Source: a virus (Duplodnaviria > Heunggongvirae > Uroviricota > Caudoviricetes). From it: 10,495 bases of DNA. Both the position numbers and the translations under genes were made by a program. Of this stretch, positions 1 to 7,305 are shown piece after piece. The DNA lies in IMG/VR virus record IMGVR_UViG_2671181188_000007; one strand, given 5' to 3'. The notes under the pieces were generated by a model, which saw only the letters and a list, made by a program, of their open reading frames with translations, was not told the origin of the DNA and did not search any database. How positions within the stretch are numbered: the stretch's first letter is position 1; each line of letters opens with the position of its first letter.

Positions 1-255
1 TTAAAAAATGAGGTGTCAAAAGGAAAACTGATTGACACCGGGTTCTGTATTTTTGCCCTCAGTAAGCTGGCAATGGCGTTATCCAGTACGCTTGATTCCA
101 TCCCTTTATCCATGCAGCGACAGTTTCCTGATTTAACACCGCGCCATCTTGACCATCTGAAAACCCTTATTGCTAAGGGGGCAAATCAGTGTGCGCGGGC
201 AGGGGATAAATTACCGGATTTACTTGATGAATATATCAGAGCAACAACTGAATAA
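1..255 (+). CDS. nu1: Terminase small subunit (lambda Nu1-like), C-terminal part; 5' end lies upstream of the window
   Basis: Frame 1 is open from base 1 to the stop at 253-255. The translation (..TGFCIFALSKLAMALSSTLDSIPLSMQRQFPDLTPRHLDHLK..LPDLLDEYI..) aligns with the C-terminal ~75 aa of lambda Nu1 as I recall it (..TAFCTFVLSRIAGEIASILDGLPLSVQRRFPELENRHVDFLK..IPGLLSEYI..). It overlaps the start of the next gene, as in lambda. Confidence 0.85.
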   Translation, partial: LKNEVSKGKLIDTGFCIFALSKLAMALSSTLDSIPLSMQRQFPDLTPRHLDHLKTLIAKGANQCARAGDKLPDLLDEYIRATTE

Positions 256-2156
256 TATGATGAGCGCTGTCACAACTGCATTACAGCCCCTGATAAGGGC
301 ATTGCCGGTGACGCCAGTTGAATGGGCTGATCAAAATTATTATCTGCCTAAAGAATCTTCATATGGTGAGGGCGAATGGAAAACGCTGCCATTCCAGATC
401 GCCATCATGAACAGTATGGGGAATGATCAGATCCGCACTGTTAATCTGATTAAATCTGCCCGTGTTGGCTATACAAAGATGTTGCTGGGGGGGGGGCGGG
501 TATTTTATTGAGCATAAATCCCGAAACAGTCTGCTTTTTCAGCCCACGGATTCTGCCGCTGAAGATTTTATGAAGTCTCACGTGGAGGCGACGATTCGGA
601 ACGTGCCATGCCTGAAAGACCTTTCCCCATGGCTGGGTCGTAAACATCGTGACAATACTCTCACGCTGAAACGCTTTTCATCGGGCGTCGGTTTCTGGTG
701 CCTGGGCGGCGCTGCCGCCAAAAACTACCGTGAAAAATCCGTTGACGTGGTCTGCTATGACGAACTTTCCTCGTTCGAGCCGGATGTCGAAAAAGAGGGC
801 TCGCCAACCCTGCTGGGGGATAAGCGTATTGAGGGGTCGGTGTGGCCAAAATCCATTCGCGGCTCGACGCCTAAAATCAAAGGCACCTGCCAGATCGAAA
901 AAGCCGCTAACGAGTCGGCGCATTTTATGCGTTTTTATGTGCCCTGCCCGCACTGTGGGGAGGCGCAGTATCTGAAATTTGGCGATGAGTCCACGCCTTT
1001 TGGGCTTAAATGGGAGAAGGACAGCCCTGAAAGTGTTTTCTACCTCTGTGAACATCATGGCTGCGTGATCCATCAGTCTGAACTGGACCAGAGCAACGGG
1101 CGGTGGATCTGTGAAAACACGGGCATGTGGACCCGTGACGGTCTGACGTTTTTCAGCGCCCGGGGTGATGAAATTCCGCCGCCGCGCTCCATCATGTTCC
1201 ATATCTGGACGGCGTACAGTCCGTTCACCACCTGGGTACAGATTGTCTATGACTGGCTGGATGCACTGAAAGATCCCAACGGCCTGAAAACCTTTGTGAA
1301 CACCACGCTGGGCGAGACCTGGGAAGAGGCCGTGGGCGAAAAACTCGATCACCAGGTACTGATGGATAAGGTGGTGCGTTACACGGCGGCGGTGCCTGCC
1401 CGGGTGGTTTATCTGACGGCGGGCATTGACTCGCAGCGAAACCGTTTTGAGATGTATGTCTGGGGATGGGCTCCGGGAGAGGAAGCCTTTCTGGTGGATA
1501 AAATCATCATTATGGGGCGTCCTGATGAGGAAGAGACGCTGTTACGTGTGGATGCGGCGATCAACAAAAAATACCGCCATGCGGATGGCACCGAAATGAC
1601 TATTTCCCGTGTCTGCTGGGACACCGGGGGGATCGATGGTGAAATTGTTTATCAGAGATCAAAAAAACACGGTGTTTTCCGGGTGCTGCCGGTAAAAGGC
1701 GCATCTGTCTATGGCAAGCCGGTGATCACCATGCCAAAAACCCGCAATCAGCGGGGCGTGTATCTGTGTGAAGTGGGAACGGACACCGCAAAAGAAATTC
1801 TCTATGCCCGTATGAAAGCCGATCCCTCGCCTGCGGATGAAGCCACGTCGTATGCCATCCGTTTTCCTGATGATCCGGAGATTTTTTCGCAGACAGAGGC
1901 GCAGCAACTGGTGGCGGAAGAGCTGGTGGAGAAGTGGGAAAAAGGAAAGATGCGTCTGCTGTGGGATAACAAAAAGCGGCGTAACGAAGCGCTGGACTGC
2001 CTGGTGTATGCCTACGCGGCATTACGTGTGTCCGTGCAACGCTGGCAGCTTGATCTGGCTGTACTGGCAAAATCCCGGGAAGAAGAGACGACCCGGCCAA
2101 CCCTGAAAGAACTGGCAGCGAAGCTGTCCGGAGGAGTGAATGGTTACAGTCGCTGA
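227..2156 (+). CDS. A: Terminase large subunit (lambda gpA-like), reading frame broken by a 1-bp frameshift in a G10 run at 487-496; present as two ORFs (227..511 and 462..2156)
   Basis: ATG at 227 gives MNISEQQLNN...VEWADQNYYLPKESSYGEGEWKTLPFQIAIMN...KSARVGYTKMLLGGG, which matches the lambda gpA N-terminus (MNISNSQVN...VEWADANYYLPKESAYQEGRWETLPFQRAIMN...KSARVGYSKMLLG). The match continues in the +1 frame (ORF 462..2156: ..YFIEHKSRN...GFWCLGGAAAKNYREKSVDV...TAYSPFTTWVQIV...FVNTTLGETWE...KRRNEALDC..) through to the gpA C-terminus. Removing one G from the run restores a single ORF of lambda-like length. Confidence 0.9.
487..496. repeat. G10 homopolymer tract inside the terminase large subunit gene; site of the frameshift
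   Basis: Direct read: ctg-gggggggggg-c-ggg. Lambda-like homology is in frame 2 before the run and frame 3 after it. Confidence 0.9.
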
Positions 2157-2346
2157 ACTGCAGGCGCTGCGTCAGGCGCGCCTTGATTTATTAACCGGTA
2201 AACGGGTGGTGTCTGTCCAGAAAGATGGTCGCAGAATTGAATATACGGCGGCTTCTCTGGATGAGCTTAACCGGGCGATCAATGATGCGGAGTCGGTACT
2301 GGGGACAACCCGGCGTCGCCGTCGTCCGCTGGGAGTGAGGTTATGA
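2140..2346 (+). CDS. W: Head-tail joining / head completion protein (lambda gpW-like)
   Basis: 68-aa ORF with GGAGGAG ribosome-binding site upstream. MVTVAELQALRQARLDLLTGKRVVSVQKDGRRIEYTAASL.. matches lambda gpW (..[24 protein letters not shown]..). Its stop overlaps the portal start (ATGA). Confidence 0.9.
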   Translation: MVTVAELQALRQARLDLLTGKRVVSVQKDGRRIEYTAASLDELNRAINDAESVLGTTRRRRRPLGVRL

Positions 2347-3935
2347 AACGAACGCCTGTCCTGATTGATGTGAACGGCGTTCCGCTTCGTGAGAGTCTCA
2401 GCTACAACGGGGGCGGTGCAGGATTTGGCGGGCAAATGGCGGAGTGGTTGCCACCGGCGCAGAGTGCCGATGCGGCCCTGCTGCCCGCGTTGCGTCTGGG
2501 GAATGCCCGGGCAGATGATCTGGTGCGCAATAACGGAATAGCGGCCAATGCGGTGGCACTGCATAAGGATCACATTGTCGGGCATATGTTTCTTATCAGC
2601 TACCGTCCGAACTGGCGCTGGCTGGGGATGCGGGAGACCGCAGCAAAAAGCTTTGTCGATGAGGTGGAGGCGGCCTGGTCGGAATACGCCGAAGGGATGT
2701 CTGGCGAGATCGACGTGGAAGGAAAACGCACGTTCACGGAATTTATCCGTGAAGGTGTGGGCGTTCATGCGTTTAACGGCGAAATCTTTGTGCAGCCGGT
2801 CTGGGATACGGAAACCACGCAGTTATTCCGTACGCGTTTTAAAGCCGTGAGTCCGAAACGGGTGGACACGCCAGGACACGGTATGGGGAACCGTTTTCTG
2901 CGGGCCGGGGTGGAGGTCGATCGATATGGCCGTGCCGTTGCGTACCATATCTGTGAGGATGATTTTCCTCGCTCCGGGAGTGGACGATGGGAACGGATCC
3001 CGCGTGAACTTCCCACCGGGCGTCCGGCCATGCTGCATATTTTCGAGCCGGTGGAGGACGGGCAGACCCGTGGGGCCAACCAGTTTTACAGCGTCATGGA
3101 ACGGCTGAAGATGCTCGATTCCCTGCAGGCAACACAGCTTCAGTCGGCCATTGTGAAAGCCATGTATGCAGCGACGATTGAAAGTGACCTTGATACCGAA
3201 AAGGCCTTTGAATATATCGCCGGTGCGCCGCAGGGGCAGAAGGATAATCCGCTTATTAATATTCTGGAGAAGTTCTCCAGCTGGTATGACACGAATAACG
3301 TGACGCTGGGTGGTGTCAAAATTCCGCACCTTTTCCCCGGGGATGATCTGAAACTACAGACTGCGCAGGATTCAGACAATGGATTTTCGGCGCTTGAACA
3401 GGCGCTGCTGCGGTATATCGCCGCCGGTCTTGGCGTTTCCTACGAACAGTTGTCCCGTGATTACTCGAAGGTCAGTTATTCAAGTGCCAGGGCCTCTGCC
3501 AATGAGTCGTGGCGCTATTTTATGGGGCGGCGAAAATTTATTGCGGCCCGGCTGGCCACGCAGATGTTTTCCTACTGGCTGGAAGAGGCACTTCTTCGGG
3601 GGATTATCCGTCCGCCACGGGCGCGTTTTGATTTTTATCAGGCGCGATCAGCCTGGTCACGGGCAGAGTGGATTGGTGCCGGAAGAATGGCCATTGACGG
3701 GCTCAAGGAGGTTCAGGAATCGGTGATGCGCATTGAGGCCGGACTGAGCACGTATGAGAAAGAGCCGGCGCTGATGGGCGAGGATTATCAGGACATTTTC
3801 CGCCAGCAGGTCAGGGAATCTGCAGAGCGGCAAAAAGCCGGACTCTCACGTCCGGTGTGGATAGCGCAGGCGTATCAGCAGCAGATAGCGGAGAGTCGCA
3901 GGCCGGAAGAGGAGACAACACCCCGTGAGACGTAA
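2343..3935 (+). CDS. B: Portal protein (lambda gpB-like)
   Basis: 530-aa ORF in the position and of the size of lambda gpB (533 aa), immediately after W and before the protease/scaffold gene. The start overlaps the W stop. Confidence 0.9.
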   Translation: MKRTPVLIDVNGVPLRESLSYNGGGAGFGGQMAEWLPPAQSADAALLPALRLGNARADDLVRNNGIAANAVALHKDHIVGHMFLISYRPNWRWLGMRETAAKSFVDEVEAAWSEYAEGMSGEIDVEGKRTFTEFIREGVGVHAFNGEIFVQPVWDTETTQLFRTRFKAVSPKRVDTPGHGMGNRFLRAGVEVDRYGRAVAYHICEDDFPRSGSGRWERIPRELPTGRPAMLHIFEPVEDGQTRGANQFYSVMERLKMLDSLQATQLQSAIVKAMYAATIESDLDTEKAFEYIAGAPQGQKDNPLINILEKFSSWYDTNNVTLGGVKIPHLFPGDDLKLQTAQDSDNGFSALEQALLRYIAAGLGVSYEQLSRDYSKVSYSSARASANESWRYFMGRRKFIAARLATQMFSYWLEEALLRGIIRPPRARFDFYQARSAWSRAEWIGAGRMAIDGLKEVQESVMRIEAGLSTYEKEPALMGEDYQDIFRQQVRESAERQKAGLSRPVWIAQAYQQQIAESRRPEEETTPRET

Positions 3936-5430
3936 TCTTTCACACATTATTGCCGCAGCATTCAATGAACCGCTGCTTCTGGAGCCCGCCTATGCGCGGG
4001 TTTTCTTTTGCGCGCTCGGGCGCGAGATGGGGGCAGCAAGTCTTTCGGTACCACAGCAGCAGGTACAGCTTGATGCTCCCGGAATGCTGGCTGAAACGGA
4101 CGAGTACATGGCCGGAGGTAAACGACCGGCCCGTGTTTACCGGGTGGTGAACGGTATTGCTGTACTGCCGGTGACCGGCACGCTGGTGCACCGGCTGGGG
4201 GGTATGCGGCCATTTTCCGGAATGACAGGCTATGACGGCATTGTCGCCTGTCTTCAGCAGGCAATGGCGGATAGCCAGGTGCGGGGCGTACTGCTGGACA
4301 TTGACAGTCCGGGCGGGCAGGCCGCCGGCGCGTTTGACTGCGCTGACATGATTTACCGCCTCCGTCAGCAGAAGCCGGTCTGGGCACTGTGCAATGACAC
4401 GGCCTGTTCTGCAGCCATGCTGCTGGCGTCGGCCTGCTCCCGACGGCTGGTTACCCAGACATCCCGTATCGGCTCCATTGGCGTGATGATGAGCCATGTC
4501 AGCTATGCCGGTCATCTGGCGCAGGCCGGTGTGGATATCACGCTGATTTACTCAGGGGCGCACAAGGTGGATGGCAATCAGTTTGAAGCCTTACCGGCAG
4601 AGGTTCGCCAGAACATGCAGCAGCGCATTGATGCGGCGCGCCGGATGTTTGCCGAAAAAGTGGCCATGTTTACCGGTCTGTCTGTTGATGCCGTCACGGG
4701 AACAGAGGCCGCCGTTTTTGAAGGTCAGTCCGGCATTGATGCCGGGCTGGCGGATGAATTAGTCAATGCGTCGGATGCCATCAGTGTGATGGCCACGGCG
4801 CTGAACAGTAATGTCAGAGGAGGCACTATGCCGCAATTAACTGCAACGGAAGCCGCCGCGCAGGAGAACCAGCGAGTGATGGGGATCCTGACATGCCAGG
4901 AAGCGAAAGGACGTGAACAGCTTGCCACGATGCTGGCAGGACAACAGGGCATGAGCGTTGAACAGGCCCGGGCGATTCTGGCCGCGGCGGCACCGCAGCA
5001 GCCGGTGGCATCCACGCAGAGTGAAGCCGATCGCATTATGGCGTGTGAAGAAGCGAACGGTCGTGAACAACTGGCGGCAACGCTGGCGGCGATGCCGGAG
5101 ATGACGGTGGAAAAAGCCCGCCCGATCCTGGCTGCTTCACCGCAGGCGGATGCCGGACCCTCACTCCGTGATCAGATCATGGCACTGGATGAGGCAAAAG
5201 GGGCTGAGGCGCAGGCTGAACAGCTGGCTGCCTGCCCGGGAATGACTGTGGAGAGCGCCCGGGCTGTGCTGGCTGCGGGATCAGGTAAGGCAGAACCGGT
5301 CTCTGCATCCACAACCGCCCTGTTTGAACGCATCATGGCGAACCATTCACCGGCTGCGGTACAGGGTGGCGTGCCACAGACGTCAGCAGACGGTGATGCG
5401 GACGTGAAAATGCTCATGGCCATGCCATGA
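3925..5430 (+). CDS. C: Head maturation protease / scaffold (lambda gpC-like, ClpP/S49-type serine peptidase fold) with C-terminal scaffolding region
   Basis: GTG start at 3925 preceded by GAGGAG at about 3908-3913. The N-terminus ..AAFNEPLLLEPAYARVFFCAL.. matches lambda gpC (..MAFNEPLMLEPAYARVFFCAL..). The centre (GIAVLPVTGTLV...LLDIDSPGG...AGAFDCADMI...KPVWAL...SRRLVTQTSRIGSIGVMM...ITLIYSGAHKVDGN) is the conserved peptidase core. The start codon is less certain than the gene call. Confidence 0.88.
   Translation: MRRNLSHIIAAAFNEPLLLEPAYARVFFCALGREMGAASLSVPQQQVQLDAPGMLAETDEYMAGGKRPARVYRVVNGIAVLPVTGTLVHRLGGMRPFSGMTGYDGIVACLQQAMADSQVRGVLLDIDSPGGQAAGAFDCADMIYRLRQQKPVWALCNDTACSAAMLLASACSRRLVTQTSRIGSIGVMMSHVSYAGHLAQAGVDITLIYSGAHKVDGNQFEALPAEVRQNMQQRIDAARRMFAEKVAMFTGLSVDAVTGTEAAVFEGQSGIDAGLADELVNASDAISVMATALNSNVRGGTMPQLTATEAAAQENQRVMGILTCQEAKGREQLATMLAGQQGMSVEQARAILAAAAPQQPVASTQSEADRIMACEEANGREQLAATLAAMPEMTVEKARPILAASPQADAGPSLRDQIMALDEAKGAEAQAEQLAACPGMTVESARAVLAAGSGKAEPVSASTTALFERIMANHSPAAVQGGVPQTSADGDADVKMLMAMP
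4828..5430 (+). CDS. nu3: Nu3-like scaffolding protein, nested in-frame within the 3' part of gene C
   Basis: In-frame ATG at 4828 with a strong Shine-Dalgarno GAGGAGG at 4816-4822 lying inside the C reading frame. Same arrangement as lambda C/Nu3. The product corresponds to the repeat-containing C-terminal region. Confidence 0.6.
   Translation: MPQLTATEAAAQENQRVMGILTCQEAKGREQLATMLAGQQGMSVEQARAILAAAAPQQPVASTQSEADRIMACEEANGREQLAATLAAMPEMTVEKARPILAASPQADAGPSLRDQIMALDEAKGAEAQAEQLAACPGMTVESARAVLAAGSGKAEPVSASTTALFERIMANHSPAAVQGGVPQTSADGDADVKMLMAMP
4873..5292 (+). repeat. Three diverged tandem copies of a ~47-53-aa scaffold module within C/Nu3 (intragenic protein-level repeat)
   Basis: Translation shows RVMGILTCQEAKGREQLATMLAGQQGMSVEQARAILAAAAPQ / RIMACEEANGREQLAATLAAMPEMTVEKARPILAASPQA / QIMALDEAKGAEAQAEQLAACPGMTVESARAVLAAGSGK. 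Unit starts are near 4873, 5032 and 5173. Boundaries are approximate. Confidence 0.7.
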
Positions 5431-5466
5431 AGTCAGTGCTGACCATCAACAGGAGGTTTTTACAAT

Positions 5467-5814
5467 ATGGTAACGAAAAACATCACTGAACAGCGTGCGG
5501 AAGTACGTATTTTTGCCGGTAATGATCCGGCTCATACCGCCACAGGCAGCAGCGGGATTTCCTCGGCAACACCGGCACTGACGCCCCTGATGCTGGATGA
5601 AGCCAGCGGGAAACTGGTGGTCTGGGACGGACAGAAAGCCGGTAGTGCAGTTGGCATACTGGTACTGCCGCTTGAAGGCACAGAGACGGTACTGACCTAT
5701 TACAAGTCGGGGACCTTTGCGACGGAGGCAATCCGCTGGCCTGAAAGTGTGGATGAACACAAAAAGGCAAATGCCTTTGCCGGCAGTGCCCTGAGTCACG
5801 CGGCGCTGCCGTAA
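5467..5814 (+). CDS. D: Head decoration protein (lambda gpD-like)
   Basis: 115-aa ORF with AGGAGG ribosome-binding site upstream. ..NDPAHTAT...TPLMLD...KLVVWDG...AVGIL...YYKSGTF...AFAG.. matches lambda gpD motifs (..SDPAHTAT..TPLMLD..KLVAWDG..AVGIL..FYKSGTF..AFAG..). Confidence 0.92.
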   Translation: MVTKNITEQRAEVRIFAGNDPAHTATGSSGISSATPALTPLMLDEASGKLVVWDGQKAGSAVGILVLPLEGTETVLTYYKSGTFATEAIRWPESVDEHKKANAFAGSALSHAALP

Positions 5815-5821
5815 CACGTTA

Positions 5822-5843
5822 TCAGGCCACCGCGGTGGCCTGA
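5822..5843. repeat. Perfect 22-bp palindrome TCAGGCCACCGCGGTGGCCTGA in the D-E intergenic region
   Basis: Direct read: the sequence equals its own reverse complement. It can form a GC-rich hairpin on the transcript. No U-tract follows, so it is not a classical intrinsic terminator. Confidence 0.8.
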
Positions 5844-5871
5844 CTGATTTCTGAATGAAAGGAACTGATTT

Positions 5872-6138
5872 ATGGGATTGTTTACGACCCGCCAGTTACT
5901 CGGTTATACCGAACAAAAAGTGAAATTTCGTGCGCTGTTTCTGGAGCTGTTTTTCCGCCGTACGGTGAATTTCCATACCGAAGAGGTGATGCTGGACAAA
6001 ATTACCGGAAAAACGCCGGTGGCGGCCTATGTCTCTCCGGTTGTTGAAGGAAAAGTGCTGCGTCATCGCGGTGGTGAAACCCGCGTGTTACGTCCGGGCT
6101 ACGTCAAGCCGAAACACGAATTCCCCTGGAGCCGGTAA
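5872..6138 (+). pseudogene. E: Major capsid protein (lambda gpE-like), N-terminal ~83 codons only; truncated by a deletion
   Basis: ATG at 5872 with an RBS. MGLFTTRQLLGYTEQKVKFRALFLELFF...[31 protein letters not shown] matches the lambda gpE N-terminus (MSMYTTAQLLAANEQKFKFDPLFLRLFF...[31 protein letters not shown]). Homology stops at KPKHE and the ORF ends 5 codons later; lambda gpE is ~341 aa. Confidence 0.85.
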
Positions 6139-6860
6139 AAGGAGCCGGTACCACCCTGTGGGTTTATAACGGTCAGGGTGACGCCTATGCAAACCCGTTG
6201 TCAGACGATGACTGGCAGCGACTGGCTAAGGTGAAGGATCTGACGCCGGGCGAGATGACGGCAGAATCCTACGATGATAACTACCTGGATGATGAAGACG
6301 CGGACTGGACCGCGACCGGGCAGGGGCAGAAATCTGCAGGTGATACCAGTTTTACGCTGGCCTGGAAACCGGGAGAGGAAGGCCAGAAAGGGCTTATAGG
6401 CTGGTTTGAAAGCGGCGATGTCCGGGCCTATAAAATCCGTTTTCCGAATGGCACGGTGGATGTGTTTCGTGGCTGGGTCAGCAGTATCGGTAAGGCCGTG
6501 ACGGCGAAAGAAGTGATCACCCGCACGGTGAAAGTCACTAACGTGGGTAAACCTTCTGTAGCGGAAGAACGCAGCAAAATTACGCCGGTCAGTGCGATTA
6601 AGGTGACGCCGACATCCGGTACGGTGGCAAAAGGGAAAACAACCACCCTGACGGTTTCTTTTGAGCCGGAAAGTGCAACCGACAAGACGTTCAGAGCGGT
6701 TTCCGCCGATCCGTCGAAAGCCACCATTAGTGTGAAAGATATGACAATTACGGTAAACGGCGTGGCGACAGGTAAGGTGCAGATCCCTGTGGTGAGCGGA
6801 AATGGTCAGTTCGCCGCAGTGGCTGAAGTCACCGTTACTGAAGCGGGCGCTGCAGGGTAA
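6126..6860 (+). CDS. V: Major tail protein (lambda gpV-like) with C-terminal Ig-like domain; lacks its native start and first ~8 codons (ORF track picks TTG at 6198)
   Basis: Frame 3 reads ..[78 protein letters not shown]...[41 protein letters not shown]...[28 protein letters not shown]. This is near-identical to lambda gpV from residue ~9 ([37 protein letters not shown]...). There is no in-frame ATG or GTG upstream before the stop at 6075-6077. Confidence 0.85.
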
Positions 6861-6873
6861 ACGGAGGTCATAC

Positions 6874-7305
6874 ATGTTTCTGAAAACAGAACAATTTGAA
6901 TATAACGGTGTGTCTGTCACGCTTTCCGAATTGTCTGCGCTGCAGCGTATCGAGCATCTTGCCCTCCTGAAACGGCGTGCAGAACAGGCAGAATCCAGCG
7001 GCAACCTGCAGGTAAGCGTGGAAGATCTCGTCAGAACCGGCGCGTTTCTGGTGGCGATGTCCCTGTGGCATAACCATCCACAGAAAACGCAGTCACCGTC
7101 AATGAATGAGGCCGTGATGAAGATAGAGCAGGAAGTGCTCACCACCTGGCCTGCCGATGCCATTGCCCGGGCGGAAGACGTGGTGTTGTGCCTGTCCGGG
7201 ATGAGCGGGGCTGTTCGTCCGGATACTGATATTACTGAAGTGGCGAAAAATAACACGCTGACTGATGATGATTTTTCTGCGGGAAAGTCTTCGACGGCGA
7301 GCTGA
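6874..7305 (+). CDS. G: Tail assembly chaperone (lambda gpG-like)
   Basis: ATG at 6874 with GGAGG at 6862-6866. MFLKTEQFEYNGVSVTLSELSALQRIEHLALLKRRAEQAES...TGAFLVAMSLWHNHPQKTQSPSMNEAV..IEQEVLTTWP.. matches lambda gpG (MFLKTESFEHNGVTVTLSELSALQRIEHLALMKRQAEQAES...). It ends ..SAGKSSTAS*. Confidence 0.92.
   Translation: MFLKTEQFEYNGVSVTLSELSALQRIEHLALLKRRAEQAESSGNLQVSVEDLVRTGAFLVAMSLWHNHPQKTQSPSMNEAVMKIEQEVLTTWPADAIARAEDVVLCLSGMSGAVRPDTDITEVAKNNTLTDDDFSAGKSSTAS
7281..7287 (+). promoter_or_regulatory. -1 programmed ribosomal frameshift slippery heptamer G GGA AAG (G to G-T fusion)
   Basis: GGGAAAG lies in the G zero frame as G.GGA.AAG, 6 codons before the G stop. The -1 frame downstream is open to 7745 and encodes the gpT homologue. 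This is the same heptamer and position as the well-known lambda G-T frameshift. Confidence 0.85.

Follow-up and report, generated by a model that had tools for sequence, protein, structure and literature searches.

The window analyzed in this study, a 10,495-nucleotide stretch of viral DNA (IMG/VR record IMGVR_UViG_2671181188_000007), contains a major capsid gene E that is cut short and joined directly to a major tail tube gene V devoid of its start, an arrangement that almost certainly stems from a 2.5-kb deletion, real and inherited, in Sp4 (CP-933M), a defective lambdoid prophage of E. coli O157:H7. Judged by its sequence, the window is part of this prophage: positions 1-9211 match Sp4 of strain Sakai at 9,207 of 9,211 positions (99.96%; three mismatches and one gap), and only two mismatches in 9,211 bases separate it from strain TR01. 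The Sakai match lies inside the feature annotated as “prophage Sp4, lambda-like phage” (NC_002695.2 1161092-1210882), which adjoins serT and hyaA, carries sodC, pchA and tccP2, and includes the two genes of interest as ECs_1110 (“phage head protein”, 267 bp) and ECs_1111 (“phage major tail protein”). The serT/hyaA site, which lies beyond the window, and the sodC and tccP2 cargo were found in 3/3 carriers inspected (TR01, Sakai and OkiPb01687), and the layout of TR01 and OkiPb01687 is the same, including an ISEc8 element upstream.

The join was mapped by alignment to four intact relatives, namely phage PhiR12_2_star, phage 21 and the prophages of E. coli MS 196-1 and 2002-3211, and it falls at 6122|6123, with E homology ending at 6122 and V homology running unbroken from 6123. 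On the E side, all four relatives read ...AAACACGAATT up to the equivalent of window base 6122 and then continue with TAATTACC; on the V side, they read ATG-SCA-ACA-CCA-AAT|CCC-CTG-G..., with window homology commencing at 6123. This parental breakpoint sequence is inferred from relatives, all four of which agree, the direct intact Sp4 ancestor not being among them; the flanks of the intact relatives are 96-99% identical to the window on one side and 90-99% on the other. Relative to these references, the window lacks 2,522 bp (PhiR12_2_star and MS 196-1), 2,521 bp (2002-3211) or 2,554 bp (phage 21), comprising E codons 85-342, the entire FI, FII, Z and U genes and the beginning of V, with its GAGGA ribosome-binding site and first five codons (MATPN or MPTPN in its own family). 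Because the number of bases lost is not divisible by three, the truncated E gene (E') ends four codons past the join and the headless V gene (V') is read in the -1 frame. The original prediction, made from the letters of the window, of a truncated E fused to V, with the E 3' end, FI, FII, Z, U and the V start gone, is thereby confirmed to the base. The upper end of its 2-2.5 kb estimate was right (the actual loss is ~2.52 kb), while the onset of V homology had to be moved from ~6126 to 6123, and its placement at V residue ~9 reflects lambda numbering, only codons 1-5 being lost in the gene's own family.

E' (5872..6138, plus strand), delineated by its open reading frame, Pfam and alignment, comprises 88 codons: 84 native ones (5872-6123), the last of which (TTC) owes its third base to the first V-derived base, and four out-of-frame ones (PWSR), followed by TAA at 6136-6138. 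The stop thus lies five codons past the residues HE, as had been predicted. The product would read MGLF...GYVKPKHEF followed by PWSR, and over residues 1-84 it matches phage 21 gp7 and E of an intact E. coli prophage without a difference. The match to Phage_cap_E (PF03864, E=1.5e-14) covers model positions 1-80/329 only, which makes E' a fragment of a Phage_cap_E member, the complete capsid domain of the HK97 type spanning about 329 model positions, in line with the PGAP label “major capsid protein, incomplete, missing C-terminus”. The ribosome-binding site and start of the capsid gene are retained, behind intact upstream head genes.

V' (6123..6860, plus strand), defined by alignment and Pfam, retains 245 codons, the first being codon 6, and ends with the stop at 6858-6860; it aligns to residues 6-250 of a 250-aa V. 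With respect to E' its frame is -1, read here from 6120. Both tail tube domains are present, Phage_TTP_12 (PF16461) over its full model (E=2.1e-69, positions 1-135/135) and Big_2 over positions 2-79/79 (E=2.8e-18); together with the capsid match of E', these hits bear out, at a level well above chance, the earlier assignment of the 88-aa ORF and the downstream ORF as gpE and gpV homologues. What V' has lost is its own initiation codon and ribosome-binding site, the ATG, codons 1-5 and GAGGA having been deleted. There is no ATG, GTG or TTG in the V' frame between the last stop (6075-6077) and TTG 6198, and no Shine-Dalgarno sequence at the candidate starts of V', TTG 6198 included. Annotation pipelines place the start at different positions (ATT 6120 in PGAP, WP_029208397.1; GTG 6231 in Sakai RefSeq, ECs_1111) because no real start survives. 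A programmed -1 frameshift joining E' to V' was also considered and rejected, as there is no slippery heptamer of the X XXY YYZ type in the E' frame over 5872-6138, a range that covers the entire E'/V' frame overlap (6078-6138). Most likely, to judge from these sequence features, V' is untranslated or barely translated.

Several minor observations pertain to the same region. In a promoter and terminator scan, no element turned up that the junction had created. Inside V', shortly past the join, the 10-nt sequence GGAGCCGGTA occurs twice as an exact direct repeat, at 6128-6137 and 6141-6150 (13 nt apart); it is conserved at 9/10 in PhiR12_2_star and MS 196-1 and more weakly in the other two relatives, and resembles chance. 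In the MS 196-1 prophage, an otherwise intact relative, the V gene (3431-4183 of locus L007) is itself labeled a pseudogene and carries an internal stop near its start, where CCCCTTGAG replaces CCCCTGGAG.

Could the join be a product of the draft assembly, in which pieces were collapsed or misjoined and the real locus retains an intact E-FI-FII-Z-U-V? The window does come from a draft scaffold with two runs of N, and O157 genomes hold several similar lambdoid prophages (seven places per genome in TR01) that can confuse assemblers. Nevertheless, a 161-bp probe across the join is contiguous in 300 of 5,426 complete E. coli genomes, Sakai included, produced by many laboratories, and a 1.5-kb probe gave the same count; among the top-ranking rows that were sampled, the junction was 100% identical, and the carriers named and inspected, a subset of the 300, are O157:H7. 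Moreover, the two stretches of N (9212-9227 and 9392-9405) are gaps in the scaffold, arbitrary in length, that lie more than 3 kb downstream of the join, in gene H; in TR01 their place is taken by 183 and 99 bp of ordinary sequence. Misassembly is thereby refuted for the lineage, and there is hardly any chance left that it accounts for the join. Between the two options originally offered, a misjoin in a draft assembly and a decayed cryptic prophage, it is therefore the latter that holds, given the near-complete match to Sakai Sp4 and the additional interruption of nu1 by ISEc8 described below.

With respect to its distribution, the junction is a stable marker, given its presence in these 300 complete genomes. 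The exact junction 35-mer was also found in 10 IMG/VR contigs and is absent from species-representative genomes. The right end of Sp4 together with serT is present at ≥99% in 359 genomes (partial matches included), i.e., about 59 beyond the 300 with the junction, and a prophage end of the Sp4 kind occupies serT in 470 genomes. A search with a reconstructed intact query retrieved intact E-FI-FII-Z-U-V modules, colinear and as long as the reconstruction predicts, from 1,542 complete genomes, which identifies the short form as the derived one; the same query found no direct intact ancestor, i.e., none of these intact modules matched both flanks at the Sp4 level. The pre-deletion state was also sought at the serT site of strains CB9615 and RM12579 of the sister lineage O55:H7, where the site is empty and gives no information on timing, and in the serT prophage of O111:H8, which has no morphogenesis genes and thus offers no source of the ancestor. 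As a separate observation, the 3' segment of the window (9406-10494, covering the end of H, followed by M and L) shares 99.6% identity with TR01 and 94.7% with Sakai Sp4, the remainder being >99.9% identical to both, which points to a possible recombinational mosaic between O157 strains or prophages.

The sequence around the breakpoint is suggestive of how the deletion may have arisen. Alignment to the four relatives delineates a patch of microhomology at the deletion ends (6113..6122, plus strand), where the window and the E parent read AACACGAATT and the V parent reads AACACCAAAT, identical at 8/10 positions, with the crossover at T6122. The original prediction had proposed to look for microhomology at the breakpoint, and this imperfect 10-bp repeat is what such a search revealed. 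Identity of at least 8/10 is expected for about 0.07% of random position pairs 1.5-3.5 kb apart in the same region, a figure to be read with the understanding that the 10-bp window was picked after the alignment had been seen and that the strict microhomology amounts to one base (T6122). The repeat fits a RecA-independent, short-homology illegitimate recombination, and we infer that a single event of this type, between the imperfect 10-bp repeats of E and V, may have joined E codon 84 to V codon 6. The deletion, inherited within the morphogenesis operon, leaves an E' that reads four codons into V before stopping and a V' in the -1 frame with no ATG, GTG, TTG or Shine-Dalgarno sequence for at least 75 nt.

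An artificial origin deserves mention here, as the EcoRI site GAATTC at 6118-6123 spans the join exactly, as would be expected of a ligation scar from cloning or engineering. This site, however, was made by the join itself, with GAATT contributed by E and C by V, and none of the four relatives has an EcoRI site at either parental breakpoint (GAATTT in E, AAATCC in V), which makes a cut-and-ligate origin impossible; furthermore, the junction is found in hundreds of natural isolates from cattle, food and humans. The probability of such an origin is negligible. The second site near the join, GGTACC (KpnI, 6146-6151), is native V sequence. Both sites had been dismissed as coincidental at the outset, and rightly so.

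Whether the scar of the deletion might have acquired a function of its own is a separate question. The E' fragment, or an E'-V' product made via frameshifting or non-canonical initiation, could in principle have a selected role, e.g., in interfering with capsid assembly of related phages or in providing a tail tube protein for co-resident prophages. Such functional remodelling would be compatible with the translation signals kept by E', with a V' frame that continues uninterrupted from codon 6 over its full length and keeps its domains intact, with the intact annotation of the downstream tail genes G to J, and with the fact that Sp4 DNA does reach particles (PMC2669165). These features are outweighed by others: the break in E' falls inside the Pfam capsid domain, as expected of a random deletion; neither a slippery heptamer nor a V' start codon with a Shine-Dalgarno sequence is available; identity among carriers reflects clonal descent rather than selection; and the same element has accumulated more defects (nu1 cut by ISEc8, the terminase gene frameshifted by G10, and copies of IS629/IS1203), with the related serT prophage of O111:H8 having lost its whole morphogenesis region. 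We therefore consider remodelling very improbable. The same low probability applies to its most specific version, for which there is no support, whereby an E' stub made upon induction would poison capsid assembly of the phage-21 type in a dominant-negative manner, or V' would be produced via non-canonical initiation and supply the tail tubes of neighbors. If true, it would mean that the scar has been co-opted in prophage-prophage interactions in O157.

The other genes delineated in the window all lie on the plus strand. At the left end of the window, a 3' remnant of the terminase small subunit gene nu1 (13..255; Pfam Phage_Nu1 positions 105-163/164) is directly preceded by ISEc8 in complete genomes, and window base 1 is the first base past the IS in TR01 and Sakai, so that the IS itself lies outside the window and the draft contig probably broke at it. 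The removal of the 5' part of nu1 by ISEc8 is a second, independent defect of Sp4. The terminase large-subunit gene of the gpA type (227..2156; Pfam GpA_ATPase and GpA_nuclease) is frameshifted by a run of ten G at 487-496. Sakai Sp4 has G9 and an intact ORF, which accounts for the 1-base gap in the alignment, and in TR01 the gene is labeled “frameshifted” by PGAP; other loci holding this tract have G9 in four cases and G10 in two, and an intact relative reads GGGGGTGGTC. The G10 tract may represent either real slipped-strand variation or a homopolymer sequencing error.

The next four genes are intact and of the phage-21 type: W (2140-2346; Pfam gpW), portal B (2343-3935; Phage_portal_2), protease/scaffold C-Nu3 (3925-5430; Peptidase_S49) and decoration D/shp (5467-5814; HDPD), and this W-to-D block (2140..5814) is 97.8% identical in DNA to the head genes of phage 21 (M81255). 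The space that separates the decoration gene from E' holds a perfect palindrome of 22 nt, TCAGGCCACCG/CGGTGGCCTGA (5822-5843). It scores as terminator-like in the scan and is matched in phage 21 and PhiR12_2_star too, suggesting that this intergenic hairpin is conserved. Downstream of V', the tail assembly chaperone genes G (6874-7305; Phage_TAC_2) and T (7332-7745; Phage_tail_T) are intact, and a motif search located the conserved slippery site GGGAAAG at 7281-7287 in the G/T region. They are followed by the annotated tape-measure gene H (7726..10053), which is 2,580 bp long in complete genomes and is interrupted here by the two N runs; its end was computed as 10305 minus the 252 bases omitted by the gaps. 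No RNA families were found in the window by Rfam. Overall, gene order and families are conserved, and the colinear set Nu1-A-W-B-C-D-E-FI-FII-Z-U-V-G-T-H is incomplete; the head-tail module is a degraded, non-functional member of the lambda/phage-21 type.

The genes E, FII, Z, U and V are established essential morphogenesis genes of lambda, and by extension from lambda genetics no infectious particle would be formed without them. The prophage would be expected to make no capsid shell, no head or tail completion proteins, no tail terminator and, probably, no tail tube; combined with the nu1 gene cut by ISEc8, the deletion would leave it non-autonomous, its DNA presumably leaving the cell only in particles provided by co-resident lambdoid prophages. 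A second copy of the lost genes elsewhere in the genome, the search for which had been part of the original prediction, does exist, in at least one intact E-FI-FII-Z-U-V set, that of Sp8 (ECs_1635-1640), whose E is 57% identical to E' and whose V is 79% identical to V'. Along with Sp10 and Sp11, Sp8 is among the Sakai prophages scored as possessing every morphogenesis gene.

Published data on Sp4 (= CP-933M of EDL933; PMC2884950) are in agreement with this assessment. In earlier work, Sp4 was scored as defective for head, major tail, DNA packaging, excision and repressor functions, and as positive for portal, minor tail and host specificity, with nu1 disrupted by an IS (Asadulghani et al., 2009, PMC2669165). 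The same study reported that Sp4 was amplified via regional replication from the neighboring Stx2 prophage Sp5, circularized after mitomycin C treatment and recovered as packaged DNA, probably via the Sp14 terminase, with its identical cos site and Nu1, and that transfer to K-12 was not detected (PMC2669165). The original statement that such an element cannot assemble virions alone is thus consistent with the published evaluation, with the addition that Sp4 DNA is still packaged with the help of other prophages (PMC2669165). Another publication, PMC7175801, makes no mention of Sp4. We are dealing, therefore, with an already known defect of a known element, for which the base-level breakpoint alone may be unpublished. 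It provides a base-level reason why Sp4/CP-933M, a carrier of the virulence-associated tccP2, pchA and sodC, forms no virions of its own; the deletion is genuine but ordinary, and of little importance beyond bookkeeping.

A comparison with known systems places the window closest to Sakai Sp4, with which it shares the ISEc8/nu1' boundary, E' (ECs_1110), V' (ECs_1111) and the gene order through H, and from which it differs by G10 in place of G9 (an extra frameshift), three substitutions and the two draft gaps in H. The late operon of phage 21 and lambda (Nu1-A-W-B-C/Nu3-D(shp)-E-FI-FII-Z-U-V-G-T-H...) has the same gene order and families. The head genes of the window are about 97-98% identical in DNA to those of phage 21, and phage 21 V has 79% protein identity to V', whereas E codons 85-342, FI, FII, Z, U and the V start are present in phage 21 and missing from the window. 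A similar pattern is seen in other defective EHEC lambdoid prophages, the so-called defective prophage pool, where cargo such as tccP2 and PerC/pchA is kept while virion genes decay, and which likewise depend on co-resident prophages. An example is the tccP2 prophage at serT of O111:H8 strain 2009C-3675, in which tccP2 is intact and the genes for regulation, replication and lysis are kept, and which has no head or tail genes; this element has lost its entire morphogenesis region beside IS1203, in contrast to the clean 2.5-kb internal deletion of Sp4 with no IS at the join. The two elements also differ in their lysis genes: the lysis cassette of TR01 Sp4 (holin, lysozyme, lysis protein and PerC/pchA) is antisense to the late genes between two IS1203 copies (L001 5409-11078), and that of O111:H8 is co-directional with the Q gene and upstream late genes (L022 14770-17779), an arrangement that suggests a possible IS-mediated inversion.

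In phage satellites (P4, PICI and cf-PICI), structural genes are absent by design and dedicated genes serve to hijack a helper. Assignment of the window to this class was considered and rejected, the capsid stub and the start-less V being deletion scars in what is otherwise a standard lambdoid late operon; the helper dependence of Sp4 is secondary.
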